The position numbers were made by a program, and so were the translations under genes. A model generated the notes under the pieces. The model saw nothing but the letters and a program-made list of their open reading frames with translations. It made no database searches and had not been told where the DNA came from. From the NCBI RefSeq assembly GCF_053078305.1, contig NZ_CP166879.1: DNA of 64,000 nucleotides; one strand, given 5' to 3'. Positions 44,508 through 56,800 of this stretch are shown here, one piece after another; the first letter of the stretch is position 1; each line of letters begins with the position of its first letter.

Positions 44508-45679
44508 CGTTCGCGCAACGCCTCCTGTGCTTTGTTAAAGGGTTTCAACAGATAATCCAGCACGCTTTTTTTGCCGGTGCGGATATCGACCGTCGCCACC
44601 ATACCGGGGAATATCGGAAACTGCTGTTTGCTTTTGTTTTCCAGATGGTTGCTGAAAGTGCGAATGTACACCCGATAGTAATAAACATCGCGCCGCACTT
44701 CATCCTGCACGGTGTCTGGTGATATCACCGCTACTTCTCCCGGCAGACCGCCGTAGATGGAGTAATCGTAGGCAGTTATTTTCACCAGCGATTTTTGCCC
44801 CGGATGGATAAACGCCACATCGCGCGGGGAGATTTTTGCCTCAATCAGCAGTTGCTCATCCAGCGGCACGATGGTCATCAGTTTACCACCGGGGGCGATG
44901 ACGCCGCCAACCGTGGTGACGTCAATATCCTGAACAATGCCACGAACTGGCGCAGTAAAGTTGAGCCTGGTGAGGGAGTCTTCACGCCCACGGATCACCG
45001 AACGCTGGGTTTCCACTTCCGCATTGGCTTTCGCTAACTCTTCCCGCGCCTGAACGTAGTATTGCGTGCGCACGTCGCTGAGTTTGTTTTCCAGTTCATT
45101 GGCCTGGCGTTGCAGGCGCAGCACTTCGACGCTGCTCGCCGCCCCCTGTTTCACCAGCGGCTGGGTCATCGCCAGTTCACGGTTGACCAGGCTAATCCCC
45201 TGCGTCAGCCCGGTGGTGGCTTTGTTCAACCCGTCGCGGCGAGTGTTGTACAACGCCGTTTCCGACTCGATAAGTTCGGGGAATTTATTCAGTTCGTCAG
45301 GGAAGACCAACGGTTTATTGCTCACTTCCGCCCGCAGCCGCGCCGAGGTTGCCAGCGCAGCGTACAGCCGCGACATCGCTTCCTGGACGTCGGATTCCGT
45401 TTTAGTGCGGTTAAGCTGCGCCAGCGGCTGGCCCTGTTCGACAATATCGCCAACTTTCACGTTCAGATGATACAGAATTCCGCCTTCCAGCGACTGCACC
45501 ACCTGTTCGCGCCCGGAAGGTTCTACCGTGCCGCTGCCGGTGGTGACTTCATCAAGCTGGAAGTACCACGCCCAGCCGAGAAAACAGAGCAGCATCACAG
45601 CGGTAACGCGTACCGCCAGCGCCGAACGCGGCAAGCGGGGTTCAGTCAGGCCACGGTTGTATTGCAGTTGTCCGTTCAT
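44504..45679 (-). CDS. Type I secretion periplasmic adaptor (HlyD family membrane fusion protein)
   Basis: 391 aa: cytoplasmic N-terminus, one TM helix ([14 protein letters not shown]), long coiled-coil and lipoyl/beta-barrel regions; ATGA-coupled to the upstream ABC gene. Confidence 0.88.
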
Positions 45680-47838
45680 GCAGCAGACCCCTTATTCTTC
45701 TCCTGCAACACCACCCGTCGCGCCGTGGGTTCGCTCTGTTCACGCAAAATGGCCTCTTTCGCGCCATCCATCACAATCCGCCCCTGATCCATCACGATTA
45801 TCCTGTCCACCAGCTGCAGCATCGCCGTGCGGTGAGTGGCGATGACCAGCGTGCGATGTCCAATCCACTGTTTCAGATGTTCGATTAAATGCGCTTCTGC
45901 CATTTCGTCCAGCGAGGCGCTGGGTTCGTCGAGCAGCACGATATTGGGTTGAGAGATGAGTAGCCGCGCCAGCAACAGCGTTTGTCGCTGACCGCCAGAG
46001 AGGCCAAATCCTCCTTCCTGAATCATGTAGTTGAGACCGTTTTTCTGCTTCTGCACAAAGGGCAGCGCCCCGCTGAGGGTTAACGCGCGTTCGATATCTT
46101 CATCGCTGGCCTCCGGCATCCCCATGGTGAGGTTTTCCCGCAGCGAACCAAAGAACAGTCGCCCGGTCTGGCTGAGTAGCCCCATGTCTCGCCGCAGATC
46201 TGCCGGATCAAGCTGCCCGATACTGATGTTATCCAGCAACACCTGCCCCTGCTGGGCGATACGCATTCCAGCGAGCATTTGCAGTAGCGTCGATTTACCC
46301 GCGCCGTTGCGCCCGAGAATGGCGATTTTCTCACCAGCCTGAATGTTGAGTTTGCCAATCGCTACATCGGCAATCTTCTCTTCTTCGTCGTAATAAAACA
46401 CCGCGTTGCTGAACTGATAATTACCGTGCAGCACCGCTTTATGCACCAGTTTGCCGTGTTCCGGCTGATCCACCGGGCGCTTCATCAGTTCATCCAGGCC
46501 GTTACGCGCCACCTTTGCCTGCTGCCAGCGCGAGAGCACGCCGGATATCTGCGACAGCGGCGCGATGGTGCGCGAAGCCAGGATCGTCGTCCCGACCAGC
46601 GCGCCGGTGGTCATGTCGCCGTTCATCACCATAAAGCAGCCCACCAACAGCACCACGACGTAGACGATGGATTGCACTTCCTGGGTCCAGGTGAGCAGTA
46701 GCCCGGTGAGAAAACGTTGCTTCATGCTGATGGACGAGGCCACATCGTTGGTGTGATTCCACTGATTCTGGAAACGCTGTTCGGCGCGCAGCAGTTTAAT
46801 ATCTTCAATCGACTGCACGGCTTCGACAAGCGTAGCGTTACGTACCGCCGACTCGCGCATCCCTTCGTTCGCCAGCCGCGCCAGCGGGCGTTGTACCAGC
46901 AGGCCGGGGATCACCAGCAACGGCAGCGCCAGTAAAACCACCAGCACCAGCCAGCCGCCAATCATCCACAAAATAAAGACAAACAGCAGGAAGAACGGCA
47001 GATCCGCCACCGCGCCGATGGTGGTGGACGTAATAAGCTCCCGCACTGATTCCAGTTCGCGGATCTGCGAGATAAACGATCCGGTGGATTTCGATCGCAC
47101 GTTGTTTTTCAGCCGTAGCGCATGACCAAAAACGCGATCCGAAATACGCAGGTCTGCCCGCTTGCCGATCACATCAGATAGATGCGTACGCACCATGCGC
47201 ATACAGAACTCAAACAGGATCGCCATCATCACCCCGGCGAACAGCACCCACAGAGTCGGGTACGATTGCGCCGGAACCACCCGATCGTAAACCTGCATCG
47301 AGAAAATCATCGCCGCCAGCGCCAGCACGTTCGCCACCAGTGACGCCAGCATAATATCGCCGTAGCGCCGCCAGTCTTTTAGCGAAAGACTCCAGAACCA
47401 GTTCGCCTGATACGGGCGAATATAGTCATCTACCCGCGCGTCAGGGATGGCGCTGAGCGGGCGCAGTAGCGCCAGTTCAACGATTTTATCCTCGACATCC
47501 GCGACGTTAAGCGTGGTTTCCAGCCCTTCGTCACCGCTGAACTGAACGCTGATATTGTCATGATTGTCGCGACGGGTGATCACGCCAATCTGCTGATTAT
47601 CAAACACCGCGATCAGCGGCAGACGCCAGGGGTTAAGCGAATCGGCGGAAAACTCCACCAGCCGTAACCCCATTCCCAACTGCCGCGCCATGTCGGTGAG
47701 CAACTCTTCCCGCTTACTGTCGCGCTCCCAGTTGACGGTCGCGCGCACATTCTCCTGAGAAAAATCGAGCCGATAATAGCGCGCCACGGCGATCATCGCC
47801 TCCAGCCAGGCTTCCACGGACTGGGCATTTTTTTTCAT
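45676..47838 (-). CDS. Type I secretion ABC exporter (HlyB type, N-terminal C39-like domain, TMD and NBD)
   Basis: 720 aa: N-terminal roughly 130 aa C39-like domain with no candidate catalytic Cys, six-helix TMD, Walker A (GRNGAGKST), signature (LSGGQRQ), Walker B (LLDEPSASLD); ATG 3 nt after the adhesin stop. Confidence 0.9.
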   Translation of the reverse strand: MKKNAQSVEAWLEAMIAVARYYRLDFSQENVRATVNWERDSKREELLTDMARQLGMGLRLVEFSADSLNPWRLPLIAVFDNQQIGVITRRDNHDNISVQFSGDEGLETTLNVADVEDKIVELALLRPLSAIPDARVDDYIRPYQANWFWSLSLKDWRRYGDIMLASLVANVLALAAMIFSMQVYDRVVPAQSYPTLWVLFAGVMMAILFEFCMRMVRTHLSDVIGKRADLRISDRVFGHALRLKNNVRSKSTGSFISQIRELESVRELITSTTIGAVADLPFFLLFVFILWMIGGWLVLVVLLALPLLVIPGLLVQRPLARLANEGMRESAVRNATLVEAVQSIEDIKLLRAEQRFQNQWNHTNDVASSISMKQRFLTGLLLTWTQEVQSIVYVVVLLVGCFMVMNGDMTTGALVGTTILASRTIAPLSQISGVLSRWQQAKVARNGLDELMKRPVDQPEHGKLVHKAVLHGNYQFSNAVFYYDEEEKIADVAIGKLNIQAGEKIAILGRNGAGKSTLLQMLAGMRIAQQGQVLLDNISIGQLDPADLRRDMGLLSQTGRLFFGSLRENLTMGMPEASDEDIERALTLSGALPFVQKQKNGLNYMIQEGGFGLSGGQRQTLLLARLLISQPNIVLLDEPSASLDEMAEAHLIEHLKQWIGHRTLVIATHRTAMLQLVDRIIVMDQGRIVMDGAKEAILREQSEPTARRVVLQEKNKGSAA

Positions 47839-47841
47839 TAT

Positions 47842-50800
47842 CTACACCACCATCAACTGATGATTCGCCAGCAAAGTGGCGAGGTCGGTGTGCACGCCCG
47901 TCAGCGTGACCACGTTAGTTGTCGCAAAAGTGCCGCCCGTGCCGTCGCGGTCGATCTGCACGATGGTGTCGCTGCCGCTCTGGGTGACTTTGACAAAGTC
48001 ACCGATGTTTCCGGCCTGCGCATCCAGCGTCGCCACGCCGTTGACATAGCTGGCTTTGCCGTTTCCGGTGTAGCCGCTGCCCTGCAACAACTCGCGGATA
48101 TCAATGCGATCGGTGTCGGCAGTGCCTTCCCAGGTGCCTACCGTAAAGCCATTCACCACATCCGAACCGTTGCCGCCAGTGGCGTCGCTGGCGTTGAGCA
48201 GTTTATAGAGCAAGGTGTCGTGGCCGCCGTTGCCGATGTTGAGCGTGTCGTTGCCGCCGCGCCCTTCCAGTTGGTTATCGCCGCTGCTGCCGGTCAGAGT
48301 GTCGTTAAAATTCGAGCCGGAAATACCTTCGATATTGGTAAATGTCGAGGTGTTAAAGCCGGTGGCCTGCGCGGCAGTGCTGCTTAAGTTCGCGGTCACG
48401 CCCACCGTCGAAAGCCGGAAATCAACCACGTCCATCCCGCCGTTCGCCAGCCACGTTCCGGTGCCGGAGCTGTACACCCAGCCGCCGGAACCGTCGTAAG
48501 TGTCGGTGCCTGCGGTGGCAAAGAAGGTGTCGTTATAGCCCGTACCAACGAACTTGCCGTTGTTGCTCGCGGTGCCCGCTTCAGCGCTGAGATCGTAAGC
48601 GTGAGTGGCATCGGTAGCCTGCAAACCACCCCAGCTGGTGTTGACCGTCTGGTCGATATTGCTGGCGGTGGTGCCGGTGGATTTGATCAGCACCGCGTTG
48701 TAGGTTTCTCCGGCATTCAGCCCGTAGAAGTTGACCAGCGCCGAGGTGTCGTTAACCCCCATACCCGACTGCGGGTTGATGATTTGCGTGGCGACCAGCA
48801 CTCCCGCCGAGTTGTACAGCTTCACGGTATTGCCGTAATAGACGTTAATGCCGTTGGGATCGGTGATGCGCAGGTGTAGCGAAGTGCCGTAGCTCACCGT
48901 GTTGGTGTTGCGGATCAGGAACACGCTGCCCGACTGTTTGGTCACCAGTACATCAACCGCGCCGTCCCAGTCGTAATCCATTGCCGCCACGCCGCTGGTG
49001 GTACCGCTCTGGCTGCCGCCGAGGGCCGATTGCGTCCAGTTGCTGGCACCACCAACGTTGGTGTAAAGATACGATTGTCCGGTCTGGGCGATACGGGCGA
49101 TATCCATCAGGCCGTCATGGTTCCAGTCCACCGCCAGGCTAAACTGGCTGGCGTAGGTGGTTGCCGTTGCGCCCACCGCCACCGGGCTACCCAGTACGCC
49201 GTTGGTGTTGAATAACAGCGAGCCGTAGTTAGCTCTTCCCTGGCTGGCGGGCAGGAAGAGATCCATATCGCCGTCACCATCGAAATCGGCCCAGGTCATG
49301 GAAACGCTGCTGCTCATAGCGCCACTGCCCGCCCCGCTCAAGAAGGTATTGGTGGTGTTCTGCCCCCAGACAAACGTCCCATTCCCCTGGTTGATGAGCG
49401 AAGATAGCGTGTAATAGTTGTTCAGGTTGTAGGTGTGCTGAACCAGGTCGATCCTGCCGTCATTGTTCAGATCGACGCCAGAACCTTCGTTGAGCGAAAG
49501 ATACCCCGTCACCGCCCCGCCCACCGTGGCGCTACCGCCGCTGTTCGACGTGGTGGAGTTACCTACCAGCGTACCTGCGTTGTTCCACAGGAAGGTGTTG
49601 GAGTCCGGCCCGCCCGCGTCGCCAATCCAGAAGTCGAGATAGCCGTCGCCCTCTTTATCAAATGCCACAATCGAGCCGTACCACGTCAGGGTGCCGACGG
49701 TGACCTGAATAGCGCTGGAAAAGGTGCCGTCGCCGTTATTGGTAAAGCCGTTGATATAGCCTGTACCGTAGTCATCACGGGTGATAAACAGATCGCCCGT
49801 GCCGTTACGGTCGTAATCGGCGATGGAGCTGGTGGCGTAGTTGTTGCCGCTCTGATACAGCGTCAGCGCGGTCTTCGACCAGGTGAGTGGGTCAGTCGAT
49901 TGCATTACCTGCTGGTTTGCCAGCACCGTCCACATCCCGTGCGAGTCGAGGCCGTAGGTCAGCCCCCAGGCGGTGGTTTTGCTGGCGGTAGTCCAGGTCG
50001 GTGTGTAATCAATCGCCGCGTTAACCGTCACCGTGCCGTTGCTAATATTGGCGTTATTGCCGTTACCCGCCGAACTTTTTACCTGCGCAGTAACGGTATA
50101 GGCGGTCGCGGAAACTGTCAGCGCATCGGTATCCGGCAACTGTACATACCAGGTGTTGTGCGCCGGATCGACCACTACCGCGCCGCCCGGTTCAGAGGTG
50201 TAGGTTTTGCCGTTGATCACCACTTCAACATACTGCCCACTGGCAAGCGCGGCGGTGATCACCCCGCTGATAATCGGCGTAGTATCGCGCGTGGTCTGGC
50301 TGGTGATTTGCGCCAGCGTGGTCGGAATAGAGGTATCGACCGTCAGGACAAAATCACTGGAGGAGGTGATATTCCCCGCCAAATCCACCACTCGCGCGCT
50401 GTAGGTATAGGCACCGCTCACCAGCCCGCTGTCGCTGTAGGTCCAGTTCAGAGCGCCGACCATCGTCACCGCCCCTAACAGCAGCCCGTTACGGTAGAGG
50501 TAAACCACTTCACCGCTGGCAAGCGGCGCGGAAAGTACACCGTTCAGCAGCGGCGTAGTGTCGTCGGTGGCCTGCGAACTGCTTAATGTCCCCTGCCGCT
50601 GCCCGACATCATCGGTATACGACACAATGGTTGGCGTGGCGGTAGGGTTAATCGTATCGACCACCACCGTTTTCGATACCACCGGGCCGGTGTTCCCCGC
50701 CAGATCCAGCACCCGCACCTGATAAACGTAGCTGCCGTCGGTCAGCGTGCGGCTATCGGTGTAAGTCCACTGCGTGCCGTTGGTGGTAAGCGTGATCCAG

Positions 50801-53800
50801 GTCGCGCCGCTATCAAGGCTAATCTGCGCCACTTCGCCGCTGGCAAGCCCCGCTCCCAGCGAACCGGTCAGCGTGAGCGTGGTATCGCTGGTGATAAAGT
50901 CAGTTGCCGAACTCCCCGTGTCGGTGCTAATGCTGGCGATGGTCAACACCTGCGCCGGGTTAACGGTGTCAATCTGCGCCGACTGGCTGCCGGTTGCGCC
51001 AACGTTGCCCGCCAGATCGACCACCCGCACCTGCCAGGTGGTGGTGCCGTTGGTGAGGGTTCGTCCGTCAACGTAACTCCAGTTCAGGCCGTCTGCTGCT
51101 AGCGTCACGTTCACCCAGGTTGCGCCGTTGTCGGTACTGATTTGTGCGAACTCATTAGCGCCGAGCGCCGCGCCCAACACGCCGCGCACGGTAAGCGTGG
51201 TGTCGCTGGTAATAAAATCGCTGCTGCTGGTTCCGGTGTCATCGCTGATGCCGGTAATGGTGATACTTTTCGCCGCTTCCGGGCTGGTGGTATCGACCAC
51301 CACGTTTTGCGTTGCGGTCTGCCCAACGTTCCCCGCCAGATCCACCACCCGCACCGTGTAGTTCCAGGTGCCGTCAGTCAGTGTGCGACCATCGGCATAG
51401 CTCCAGCTGGTGCCGATAACGGTTAACGTAGTCCAGGTGACGCCGCCGTCGAGGCTGATTTGCGCCCGTTCATCGGCGGCAAGCGCCGCGCCGAGCGTGC
51501 CGCGCACGGTCAGCGTGGTGTCGCGTGTAACAAAATCGCTGCTGCTTAACCCGGTGTCATCGCTGATGCTCGCAATGGCGATGGTTTTGCTCGCCAGCGG
51601 CGCGGTGGTATCCACAGTGACTATCTGGCTGGCGGTCGCGCCGATATTTCCGGCGGTGTCGATCACCCGCACCTGGTAGTTGTAGTTGCCATCGGTCAGC
51701 GTACGCCCGTCAAGATAGCTCCAGGTCAAACCGCTTACCGAAAGATTCTGCCAGGTGGTGCCGCCATCAATGCTGATTTGCGCGAACTCACCGGCAGAAA
51801 GCGTCGCCCCCAGCGTGCCGCTCACCGCAAGCGTCGTGTCGCTGGTGACAAAATCGTTAGTGATCAAGCCCGTATCGGTGGTGATCGCGCTGATGGCGAT
51901 GGTTTTCACCGCGGGATCTGGCGCGGTAGTGTCGATCACCACATTCTGGCTGTCGGTCGCGCCAACGTTGCCCGCTGCGTCAATCACCCGCACCTGATAG
52001 AGATAGTTGCCATCGGTCAGCGTGCGGCTGTCGTTATAGCGCCAGGTCGTGCCGGTAACGGTAAGCGTGGTCCAGGTTGTGCCGCCGTCGATACTTATTT
52101 GCGCCGTCTCGTTACTGGCAAGCGCGGCGGTGAGCGAGCCGTTGACCACTACCGGACTGACGCTGGTGATAAAGTCGCTGGCGCTAAGGCCAGTGTCGGC
52201 TTGCAGGGAATCGATATTAATGCCCATCGCCGGAGCGCTGAGATCGACGGTAATGGTGTGATTACTGCTACCGGTGTTGCCAATGGCATTGCTCACCGAG
52301 GCGTTAATCACGTAAGCATTGCCGTCCGCCAGCGCGGTAACATCGGCGCTGCCTAGGGTGTAGCTCCAGCTACCGCCGGTCTGTACCGTGGTGGTGTAGG
52401 TTTTGCCGTTTAAGGTCAGGGTCAGCGTCTGTCCGACCGGCGCGGTGGTGGTGCCGCTGATCACCAGCGACGAGCCGTGTTCTGCTGCATTCACCACATC
52501 ATCGCCCGCAAAGGTGTTGATGGTGACGGTGGGCACGTCGCCGTTCAGCGTCACGCCACGGCTGGCGCTGCCGGGGTTTCCGGCCTGATCGCTAACCGTC
52601 GCGCTAATGGTGTAGCTGCCGTCGCTTAATCCAGCAAACTGCTGCGCCGGAATAAACACCGACCAGCTTCCGCCGCTGCCGACCGTTGTGGTCCAGGTTT
52701 GCCCGTTAAAGGTAACGGTCACCGTCTGGCCCACTTCGGCGGTGGTGGTGCCGCTGATGGTCTGCCCGGCAAGCTGCTCGGCGTTGTTGATAATATCGTC
52801 ACCCGCCACCGTGGCGATGGTGACCGTTGGCGCAACGGTATCGACGGTCAGGGCGTGCGTGGTTTGACCGGGGTTACCGGCACGATCGTTCACGCTGGCG
52901 GTAATGGTCTGCGCACCCTGCCCGAGCGATGCCAGATCCGCCGCAGGCACGTTAAGCGCCCAGGTGCCATTGGCGGCAACCGTGGCGGTATAGGTTTTGC
53001 CGCCAAAGATCACGGTGACCGTCTGCCCTACTTCCGCGCTGGTCGAGCCGTTAAGGGTTAACGGCTGCTGCTGTTCGGCGGCGTTGAGTCGGTCGTCCGT
53101 CGAAACGGTGTTAATACTGATAACCGGCGCGGTGAGATCCACCGTCACGCTGCGTGAGGCCGTGGCGCTGTTTCCGGCACTGTCCTGAGCGGAGGCGCTA
53201 ACCGTGTAGCTGGTGCCATCCGCCAGTGCCGCGACGTCTGCCGCCGGCACATTCACGCTCCAGCTCCCGTTGCTCTGAATGGCAGCGCTGTAGCCTTTGC
53301 CGTTAAGCAACACGGTCACCACTGTACCTGTCGCGAAATTAGTGCCAGTGCCGCTCAGGGTCAGCGCACTGCCCGCTTCGGCGGCGTTAATAATATTATC
53401 GCCGCTGATGGTGCTGACCGAGAGCGACACCGCCGCCGTATTGACCTGCACGTTGTGCGTCTGCGTGCTGCTGTTGCCTGCGCTATCGGTGATGGTGGCG
53501 CTGATGGTCACCGTGCCGTCTGCAAGGCCGGAAATCACGCTGGCAGGCACGCCAACGCTCCAGTTGCCGCTGGCATCGGTGCTGGTGACATACTGCTGCC
53601 CGGCGATGGTCACCACCAGGCGGTCGCCTGCGACCGCGCCCGTGGCGGTGCCGCTGATAATCTGCGCCTGAGTGTGTTCGACGTTGTTAATCACATCATC
53701 GCCCGCCACGGTGTTAAAGCTGATCACCGGCGCGGTGGTATCGACGGTCACACCTTTGCTGGCGCTGCCAGGGTTACCCGCCAGATCGCTGACCGTAGCG

Positions 53801-56800
53801 GTCAGGGTGTAGCCGTTATTGGCCAGTGCGGTTAAGTCGCTGGCGGGCAGCGTTAAGCTCCAACTGCCGTCTGCCTGCACCGTGGTCTGGTAGTTAGTGC
53901 CGTTAAGCGTGACGGTGAGCGTCTGCCCGGTTTGCGCCGTGCTGGTGCCGGACACCGTTACGCCCGCCGCCGCTTCGCTGGCGTTGATGATGTTATCGCT
54001 GGCAATGGTGTTGATGGTGACCGTTGGCGCGGCGCTATCGACGCTGTATTCGTGCGTTGCCGTGGCGCTGTTGCCGTTGACGTTAGTCACCCGCACCTGG
54101 GCGCTGGCATCGCCGTCACGCAGCGCCGCCAAATCCGCAGCCGGAACGGTGGTGCTCCAGCTACCGTTAGCCGCCACCGTGGAGGTGTAGGTTTTGCCGC
54201 CAAAGGTGACGGTGACGGTTTGCCCCGCTTCGACGCCGGACGTGCTGCCGGAGAGCATTAGCGCCGCGCCTTTTTCGGCGGCGTTAATCACATCATCAGG
54301 GGTAATAGCGTTAATGCTGATGGCAACGGTAGTGAGATCAACAGTCAGCGGATGGGTAATGCTGGTTTGCGTTCCGGCACTGTTCGCGCCGCTAACGGTA
54401 ATATTCAGCGTTCCCGCAGGCCAGTTACTGACATCCGCCGCCGGAACGCCGACGCTCCAGCTGCCGTTCGCCAGCACCGTGGCGGCGTAAGTTTGGTTGT
54501 TAATCACCACCGTCAACGCCGTGCCTGCGGCAAAGCCGGAGCTGCTGCCGGTGATCACCTGCGCCTGAGCGTGTTCGATGATATTGACCACATCATCACC
54601 CGCGACGGTATCCACCCGCAGGCCAGGCAGACTGGCATCGATGGTGATATCGCGCGTGCCGCTACCGGTGTTGCCAACGGCGTTGGTCACCGAGGCATTA
54701 ACCGTTAACTCACCGTTACCCAGCGCCTGCCAGTCGGCGGCAGGTACGCTCACATTCCAGCTTAAATCAGCCTGGACGGTGGCGGTGTAAGTTTTACCGC
54801 CCAGTTCAACGGTGACGGTGCTGCCCGCCGCCGCCCCGGTGACCTGGCCGCTGATAGTTTGCGCGCTGCCTGCCTCTGAAGCGTTGATAATATCGTCCGT
54901 CGCCACCGGATTAATGGTGATGCCCGGCAGCGCGGTATTAACCTGCACGTTATGGCTGGCGGTGCTGCTGTTACCCTGAGCATTGGTGACGCTCGCCGTC
55001 ACGCTGTAGGTCGCTTCGCCCAGCGCACTGACTGCCGAGGCGGGCACAGTAACGCTCCAGTTGCCGGAGGCGTCGGTAGTGGCGCTGTAGTTTTGTCCGT
55101 TCAGCGTGACGGTGATCGCCGTACCCGCAGGCTGATCGCTGGTGCCAGAAAGCGCCAGATCAGATCCTTTTTCCGTCGCGTTGATCACATCATCGCCCGC
55201 GATGGTGTTGATGCTAATCACTGGCGCGCTGAGGCTGACGGTCACGGTGCGGCTGGCGTCGTCGCTGTTGCCTGCCCGATCGCTGACGCTGGCGGTGATG
55301 GTCTGTGCGCCGCTACCCAGCGCCGCAACATCCGCCGCCGGTACGCCGACGCTCCAGTTACCGGAGGCATCCAGCGTGGTGGTGTAGGTTTTGCCATTGA
55401 GCACAACGCTCACCACATCGCCCGCTTCCCCGCCCGTGCTGGTACCGGAGATCACCAGCGCCTGGGCGTGTTCGGCGTCGTTGATGATGTCATCGCCCGC
55501 CACGGTGTTAATGGTGAGAACCGGCGCGGTGGTATCTACCGCCAGATTGTGGCTGGCGCTGCCGGGGTTGCCCGCTTTGTCGTTGACCGTGGCGCTGACG
55601 GTGTAATTGCTTGCGGTCAGCGCGCCTAAGGCTGAAGTGGGAACGCTGACGCTCCAGCTACCGTCCGCCTGCACAGTGCCGGTGTAGGTTGCGCCGTTAA
55701 GGGTGACGGTCACCGTCTGCCCGGTTTCGGCGGTGCTGGTGCCGCTGATGGTGAGCGGGCTTCCTGCCTCTGCGGCGTTAAGGATGTCATCGCTGGCGAT
55801 GGTGTTAATGGTGAGCGTCGGCGCGCTGGCGTCAACGCTATACGCATGGGTCGCCGAGGCGCTGTTGCCGCTCGCGCTGCTGACGCTGGCCTGCACGTTC
55901 GCCGCGCCGTCTGGCAGAGCTGCCAGATCCGCCGCCGGAACCGTTACGCTCCAGCTTCCGTTGGCGGCGACGATTGCGGTGTAGGTTTTGCCGCCAAAAG
56001 TGACGGTGACGGTTTGCCCGCTTTCAATCCCGCTGGTGCTGCCGGAGAGGGTCAGGCCAGTGCCTTTTTCGGCAGCGTTAATTACGTCGTCGCTGGCAAC
56101 GGTGTTGATGCTGATTGCCACCGCCGTTAAATCGACGGTGAACGGATGGCTGACGCTGACCGGGTTTCCGGCGCTGCTCTGTCCTGCCACGTCAACGGTT
56201 AACGCCCCCGCAGGCCAGGCGCTGACGTTTGCCGCCGGAATGCCGACGCTCCAGCTCCCGTCCGCCTGTACCGTGGCGGAATACGCCACACTGTTGATGG
56301 TAACCGTCAGCACAGCACCTGCATTCAGGCCGCTACTGCCGCCGGTGATCACCTGCGCCTGTCCGTGTTCAATGCTGTTGACGATATCATCGCCCGCTAC
56401 CGTATCCACCCGCAGCCCCGGCAGGTTGGCATCAATGGTGATATCCCGCGTGCCGCTGCCCGTATTGCCATTAGCGTTGGTGACCGAGGCGGTAATGGTC
56501 AAATCACCATTGCCCAACGCCTGGAGATCGGCTGCCGGAACGCTGATACTCCAGCTTAAATCGGGCTGAACCTCCGCTGTGTAAGTGTTCCCGCCCAGCG
56601 TCACGGTGACCGTATCGCCAGCGGCGGCGCGAGTCACCACCCCGCTGATGGTTTGATCGGCCCCCGCTTCGGCGGCGTTGATAATATCGTCGCCTGCCAC
56701 GGTGTTGATGGTGACGTCCGGCAGGCCGCTGTCGACCAGTAAATTCGCCTGGCTGCTGGCGGTGTTGCCTGCTGCACTGGTGGCGCTGGCGCTGACCGTA

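Follow-up and report, generated by a model that had tools for sequence, protein, structure and literature searches.

In type I secretion systems (T1SSs), an N-terminal C39-like domain on the ATP-binding cassette (ABC) transporter goes together with large cargo bearing a C-terminal signal, which is by now a textbook correlation (Chem Rev review, PMC8277102). Systems whose transporter has no such N-terminal appendix, e.g., HasD and PrtD, work well (PMC8277102). For the LapB type, a 2017 preprint by Smith, Font, Kelly, Sondermann, and O'Toole (bioRxiv 10.1101/198937) described a transporter N-terminal domain that has neither the C39 cysteine nor the Trp of the HlyB type and placed these transporters in a clade separate from those of the repeats-in-toxin (RTX) toxins. 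The T1SS genes on O-island 28 (OI-28) of enterohemorrhagic Escherichia coli (EHEC) have been named tolC28, rtxA28, rtxB28, hlyB28, and hlyD28 (Niu et al., Gut Microbes 2025, PMC12758282). In that paper, single deletions of hlyB28, hlyD28, tolC28, rtxA28, and rtxB28 each lower Caco-2 adherence and mouse colonization, and the deletions of hlyB28, hlyD28, and tolC28 were complemented; the C39 domain goes unmentioned in the paper ("C39," 0 occurrences). Here we describe a 64,000-nucleotide (nt) stretch of contig NZ_CP166879.1 (RefSeq assembly GCF_053078305.1), referred to as the window, in which a gene at 45676..47838 on the minus strand encodes a T1SS ABC permease/ATPase of 720 amino acids (aa) with a catalytically dead C39-like N-terminal domain. 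Coordinates below refer to the minus strand unless marked otherwise.

The core genes of the window are 99.2% identical to E. coli over 25 kb. The ABC gene is the orthologue of EHEC Z0634/ECs_0543 ("hlyB28"/"lapB"), and its product is identical at 715 of 720 residues to ECs_0543 of O157:H7 Sakai, where the gene is annotated as "lapB." The Sakai island lies between ybaT and cueR and has the same gene order as here (ybaT, TolC-like gene, adhesin, ABC gene, adaptor, and cueR). The 99% identity to a characterized locus settles which system this is, and we identify the ABC gene by its sequence as the known OI-28 type I secretion pump. The ABC-adaptor segment occurs at a coverage of at least 80% in 958 of 5,426 complete E. 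coli genomes. A dead C39-like domain is what one would expect of a pump for giant adhesins, and in this respect the gene is ordinary.

The protein starts with MKKNAQSVEAWLEAMIAVARYYRL, matching the N terminus quoted in the preliminary description of this gene. It passes the NCBIfam model TIGR03375 (type_I_sec_LssB) with 838.2 bits (cutoff, 693.1) over residues 10 to 703 and fails the HlyB subfamily model TIGR01846 with 387 bits (cutoff, 725.55). Full-length alignment joins residues 10 to 701 to residues 9 to 694 of HlyB (E value, 1e-80), and the full-length alignment with PCAT1 gives an E value of 2e-58, the overall ABC architecture being common to both. The TIGR03375 score, read together with the description by Smith et al., assigns the protein to the LssB/LapB type and outside the HlyB subfamily. 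TIGR03375 was also the top-scoring model for all six distant full-length relatives that have the same N-terminal domain, with five above the cutoff (720 to 801 bits) and one slightly under it (686.5 versus 693.1 bits). Placing the OI-28 pump in the LapB/LssB rather than the hemolysin branch of type I secretion carries little weight beyond annotation. The ABC engine is intact, with a transmembrane domain at residues 162 to 423 (46570..47355; PF00664 ABC_membrane, 110.5 bits) and a nucleotide-binding domain (45730..46350; PF00005, 96.7 bits; Pfam match at residues 497 to 640). A motif scan recovered all of the ABC motifs: Walker A (GRNGAGKS, residue 509), the Q-loop (LSQ, 555), the signature (LSGGQ, 613), Walker B with the catalytic Glu (IVLLDE, 633), and the H-loop (ATHR, 667).

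Residues 1 to 130 (47449..47838) make up the C39-like, papain-fold domain, on the evidence of AlphaFold2, Foldseek, and a profile search of the PDB. Relatives of residues 1 to 159 amounted to 154 matches at an E value of ≤1e-3 among 1.84 billion representative proteins, and 33 sequences that cover the domain, at 20 to 46% identity to the query, formed the family alignment on which both the profile and the AlphaFold2 model are based. A profile search of the domain for homologous proteins returned 42 matches, nearly all of them short pieces of the E. coli protein. Such a family profile and structure model were required because Pfam by itself gave no support for C39; the single sequence of the domain, searched with phmmer against the PCAT1 peptidase domain, reached an E value of 0.04. 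Against the PDB, the 33-sequence profile matched 3B79 (E value, 1e-11), the HlyB C39-like domain 3ZUA (1.3e-6), and the active C39 domains of PCAT1 (1.6e-5), ComA (2e-3), and LahT (3e-3). The AlphaFold2 model had a mean predicted local distance difference test score (pLDDT) of 90.2, mostly above 94 for residues 11 to 130, and a predicted template modeling score of 0.80. In a Foldseek search of this model against the PDB, the best 23 matches were all C39 or C39-like domains, with a probability of 1.0 throughout, template modeling (TM) scores of about 0.6 to 0.75, and E values of 4e-8 to 2e-4; they were led by 3B79 (4e-8), 7N87 (PCAT1; 9e-8), and 3ZUA (4.5e-7), followed by 7SGR, 6MPZ, and 3K8U. 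These structural matches and those of the family profile put the kinship of the domain to the C39 fold far past chance.

Three independent alignments agree in placing Ala10 (codon, 47809..47811) where C39 peptidases have their catalytic Cys. It lies opposite C21 of PCAT1 in the phmmer alignment with the PCAT1 C39 domain (C21 is mutated to Ala in 7N87), opposite Tyr9 of HlyB in the full-length alignment, and again in the nucleophile position when the 33-sequence profile is aligned with the HlyB C39-like domain (3ZUA/8DCK). The profile alignment further places Ile84 (codon, 47587..47589) at the catalytic His position (HlyB H83), Ser101 (codon, 47536..47538) at the catalytic Asp position (within IFDLE of HlyB), and Val78 opposite HlyB Trp77, in a column that is mostly E or Q in the family. 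Of the 720 residues of the protein, just two are Cys (212 and 401), both of them in the membrane domain, and a search of the sequence found none before residue 212. The only His within residues 1 to 160, H93, is not conserved in the 33-sequence alignment. Across that alignment, the former Cys column varies (A, P, S, or G, among others; a single sequence has Cys), 31 of the 33 sequences have V, I, or L in the His column and none has a His there or up to 2 residues to either side, and the Asp column is Ser in 17 sequences and Asp in none. As the entire triad is gone (Cys to Ala10, His to Ile84, and Asp to Ser101), the domain is predicted to be unable to cleave anything, i.e., it is not a protease by its residues. 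Its old active site is also more degenerate than that of the HlyB C39-like domain, which retains the His and the Asp.

Other positions of the domain are strongly conserved, including P74 (33/33), W11 (30/33), and A19, S27, G55, L56, P127, D133, and R135, which like W11 are conserved in at least 90% of the sequences. The motifs WRLP, FSG, LRP, and DARVDxYI recur despite the 20 to 46% identity. This pattern indicates that the domain is under constraint and is clearly maintained. A distant member from a metagenome contig, P0069 (L006, 4495-6606), is the sole member of the family with a Cys in the nucleophile column (KICWLNS), and its His position has no His; it passes TIGR03375 (744 bits) and belongs to a cluster of genes for an outer membrane channel, an ABC protein, and an adaptor that adjoins an IS21-type element.

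The preliminary description, without stating the strand of this reading frame, had likened its first ~130 residues to the C39-like N-terminal domain of HlyB-type exporters and had seen no Cys at the catalytic position. The reading frame, which lies on the minus strand, and its C39-like domain are upheld by the profile, the AlphaFold2 model, and Foldseek, and the structure prediction proposed as a check gave a confident model with only C39 or C39-like domains as its best 23 matches. The missing Cys is borne out by all three alignments, and the His and Asp turn out to be lost as well; alignment with HlyB and bacteriocin-type C39 domains, likewise proposed as a check, gave no Cys/His pair while the kinship to C39 was present. 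"HlyB-type" stands insofar as the protein is a T1SS ABC transporter with a C39-like domain, but not as a subfamily, as TIGR01846 failed, TIGR03375 passed, and the Trp77/His83 pair is absent.

The minus-strand gene order is the giant adhesin (47842 to past 64000), the ABC gene, a HlyD-family periplasmic adaptor of 391 aa (44504..45679; TIGR01843, 328 bits; cutoff, 209), and cueR (44100-44507). Only 3 nt lie between the adhesin stop codon and the ABC start, and the ABC/adaptor and adaptor/cueR junctions are ATGA stop/start overlaps. In the complete genomes of PapM-32-1 and Sakai, a TolC-family gene is found just upstream of the adhesin, in the part outside the window, with ybaT beyond it. The overlap at 44504-44507 makes cueR a fifth gene of the adhesin/T1SS cluster in island-bearing strains, with a start that would be translationally coupled to the cluster because it overlaps the adaptor stop; with the cueR start inside the end of the adaptor gene, hlyD28 must also contain any promoter of cueR.

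The presumed cargo is the giant immunoglobulin (Ig)-repeat adhesin SiiEA, of which the window holds the C-terminal 5,385 codons (47842..64000) before the gene runs off its end. This part is 97% identical to residues 1541 to 6925 of WP_164476688 ("BapA-related adhesin SiiEA," 6,925 aa, E. coli PapM-32-1) and contains NF033510 Ca_tandemer and Big_13 repeats, with FG-GAP/VCBS repeats at the C terminus. A Pfam match and a regular-expression scan located about four degenerate RTX nonapeptide repeats (48214..48318; PF00353, 27.5 bits; cutoff, 23), and they are followed by a type I secretion C-terminal target domain, the region of the uncleaved signal (47854..48162; TIGR03661 T1SS_VCA0849, 34.6 bits; cutoff, 17.6). 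The proposal in the preliminary description that the adjacent adhesin is the cargo fits with these repeats, this target domain, and the 3-nt distance to the ABC start, and the EHEC genetics on the 99%-identical orthologue agree with it (PMC12758282). Distant relatives of the ABC protein also adjoin cut giant open reading frames (ORFs; >2,000 aa) and an adaptor gene, and in some cases an outer membrane channel gene; for two of them, P0010 and P0039, the neighbors are such cut giant ORFs (>2,000 aa) together with an adaptor gene of the AprE/HlyD type. The adhesin gene itself is a single ORF of 6,925 aa in PapM-32-1 and is uninterrupted over all 5,385 codons of the window copy; in Sakai it is annotated as two ORFs (L003, 11354-31822), ECs_0541 of 1,461 aa and ECs_0542 of 5,291 aa, which are ~200 nt apart.

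For the N terminus of SiiEA, which lies outside the window, we used the PapM-32-1 copy. It carries a BapA-prefix domain (PF22783, 71.5 bits; NF033677, 71.3 bits; NF047714 SiiEA, 508 bits), and no double-glycine leader of 15 to 30 residues was found in it. A single-sequence AlphaFold2 model of residues 1 to 130 had a pLDDT of 45, too low for a fold search; comparison with PDB sequences gave chance matches to NDUFA11 only, and a homologue search gave only near-identical fragments from E. coli and Shigella, too shallow for a structural alignment. After the BapA-prefix domain, at residues ~90 to 156 (L002, 481-21258, minus strand), there is FADTAAGGLAPVE with a TAAG dialanine motif like that at which LapG cleaves LapA, and a Gly/Ala-rich hydrophobic stretch (FPWGWLAGAAVGGGALGALLASGGDGD) comes next. 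The annotations of PapM-32-1 and Sakai list no lapG or lapD gene for the island and its flanks, a statement that covers this locus only.

We consider it very likely that this LapB/LssB-type T1SS ABC transporter exports SiiEA, with the dead C39-like domain most likely docking the cargo and/or aiding assembly. The ABC protein would be the inner membrane energizer of the OI-28 system. Its partners, the HlyD-type adaptor of the adjacent gene and a dedicated TolC-like channel, would join it in exporting an Ig-repeat/RTX adhesin whose signal, predicted to remain uncleaved, is at its C terminus. The N-terminal ~130 residues, which keep the papain-like C39 fold with the whole catalytic triad gone, may serve as a cytosolic docking or holding module for unfolded cargo, as a contact in ABC-adaptor assembly, or as both, by analogy with HlyB. 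This role, although the most likely one, is the weakest step. Several points weigh against the reading as a whole. The Pfam model for peptidase C39, applied to the ABC protein alone, remained under its threshold (PF03412, 15.5 bits; cutoff, 22; E value, 0.015). The idea of cargo tethering comes from HlyB, but the two HlyB residues linked to that interaction, W77 and H83, are not conserved here, and a role in RTX binding is less obvious than for HlyA because the RTX nonapeptides of the cargo are few (about four) and degenerate. Published genetics do show that adhesin-dependent adherence requires the orthologous transporter, but the available text of PMC12758282 reports adherence and colonization phenotypes and no direct proof that SiiEA secretion depends on this ABC protein.

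Alternatively, the protein may truly be of the HlyB type, in which case its C39-like domain would bind RTX repeats in the cargo just as HlyB binds HlyA. The full-length HlyB alignment (residues 10 to 701; E value, 1e-80), the presence of the HlyB C39-like domain among the best structural matches, and a cargo with RTX repeats and a C-terminal signal are all in keeping with this idea, which we nevertheless hold to be quite improbable, given that TIGR01846 scored far below its cutoff (387 versus 725) whereas the LssB model passed. In addition, Trp77 and His83 of HlyB are replaced by Val78 (mostly E or Q in the family) and Ile84, the nearest solved structure is the Vibrio domain 3B79 rather than HlyB, only about four degenerate RTX repeats are present in the cargo, and LapB-like N-terminal domains are set in a clade apart from the C39-like domains of RTX toxin transporters (bioRxiv 10.1101/198937). 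There is also next to no chance, in our judgment, that the domain is an active leader peptidase of the peptidase-containing ABC transporter (PCAT)/bacteriocin type that uses unconventional catalytic residues. A C39/papain fold is present and P0069 carries a Cys in the column of the lost nucleophile, but the window protein has no Cys before residue 212, none of the 33 sequences has an Asp in the Asp column or a His within 2 residues of the His column, the only His of the domain (H93) is not conserved, Pfam C39 is under threshold, and the adhesin that serves as cargo, at ~6,900 aa, lacks a 15- to 30-residue double-glycine leader. An alternative Ser101/His93 pair was considered for such an active peptidase and was rejected, as the pair has no family support.

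At the other extreme, the domain may be a functionless relic, the cargo being recognized entirely by the adaptor, the membrane domain, and the nucleotide-binding domain, as in HasD/PrtD. The complete loss of the triad, the lack of functional data for the LapB/LssB-type N-terminal domain clade, and the good performance of T1SSs without an N-terminal appendix (PMC8277102) would suit a relic; strong family-specific conservation at low identity (at least 90% at W11, A19, S27, G55, L56, P74, P127, D133, and R135), a confidently predicted fold, and the retention of the domain in all full-length relatives that we examined make it highly improbable. Unlikely, in turn, is that the LapB/LssB-type domain, instead of being a weakened version of the HlyB C39-like domain, has been repurposed, with a conserved surface of its own (Trp11, which adjoins the old nucleophile position, WRLP, and FSG) recognizing a non-RTX target such as the VCA0849-type C-terminal domain or the N-terminal plug of the adhesin. 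If this were true, the TAAG site without lapG or lapD at the locus would imply a different control of release and retention, or none. The results are of use in studies of SiiEA display by EHEC and other E. coli, in which the N-terminal domain is an obvious target for cargo recognition mutants.

The locus has left a trace in E. coli K-12. The intergenic region between ybaT and cueR of MG1655 (L011, 2400-2493) retains ~95 nt with homology to the end of hlyD28 on its 3' side (window 44508-44600), at roughly 90% identity and with one 1-nt deletion, and this remnant reaches the cueR ATG. K-12 therefore carries a deletion scar of the island; OI-28 looks like an ancestral locus that was lost in K-12 and not like an EHEC insertion.

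On the far side of cueR, the window encodes a YadA-anchor trimeric autotransporter (41586-43388, plus strand; PF03895, 44.8 bits) that bears a signal peptide and an extended coiled-coil stalk. The protein is longer here (about 590 aa) than in PapM-32-1 and Sakai (338 aa) owing to a tandem duplication of 369 bp (123 aa) at 41901-42615, whose copies are 94% identical. The gene has a small ORF on each side, encoding 120 aa (40875-41237, minus strand) and 140 aa (43474-43896, plus strand); the latter is annotated as a putative lipoprotein in Sakai, and neither had a significant family match in Pfam or NCBIfam. Their place is the interval from ybbJ to cueR, which is closed in K-12, with ybbJ beginning at 514401 directly after the cueR stop.

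Compared with known systems, the N-terminal domain has the same papain-like fold as the PCAT/AMS C39 peptidases (PCAT1, ComA, and LahT), within the same ABC architecture. These enzymes carry a Cys/His/Asp triad and cleave the double-glycine leaders of small peptides, whereas the window system has no triad and, as its presumed cargo, a giant ~6,900-aa adhesin with a C-terminal signal. The HlyB C39-like domain (3ZUA; HlyB/D complex, 7SGR/8DCK) shares the fold, the N-terminal place on a T1SS ABC protein, and the loss of the nucleophile (Tyr9 versus Ala10). HlyB retains His83, stacked on Trp77, and the Asp, whereas the window protein has Ile84, Val78, and Ser101 instead, and the two belong to different NCBIfam subfamilies. 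The best match by both profile (E value, 1e-11) and structure (Foldseek E value, 4e-8; target TM score, 0.75) is 3B79, the C39-like domain of a Vibrio parahaemolyticus toxin secretion ATP-binding protein solved by structural genomics in 2007. Like the window domain, it has neither the Cys (Pro) nor the His (Ser) at the catalytic positions, but it differs in its low identity of about 20% and in a Leu in place of the family Trp11; to our knowledge, no function has been published for it.

The subfamily model groups the window protein with the type of LapB of Pseudomonas fluorescens and LssB of Legionella pneumophila. The protein passes TIGR03375 and has lost the Cys and the Trp, as described for LapB, and it is likewise encoded with an adaptor, an outer membrane channel, and a giant repeat adhesin. 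The layout of SiiEA, with its N-terminal BapA-prefix domain, TAAG motif, and Gly-rich stretch, may also correspond to that of the LapA retention module; OI-28 differs from LapB/LssB-type systems in that no lapG or lapD is annotated at the island or its flanks (PapM-32-1 and Sakai). The closest counterpart is the OI-28 T1SS of EHEC O157:H7, which has the same ABC protein (715/720 residues) and the same synteny and differs in having its adhesin split into two ORFs.

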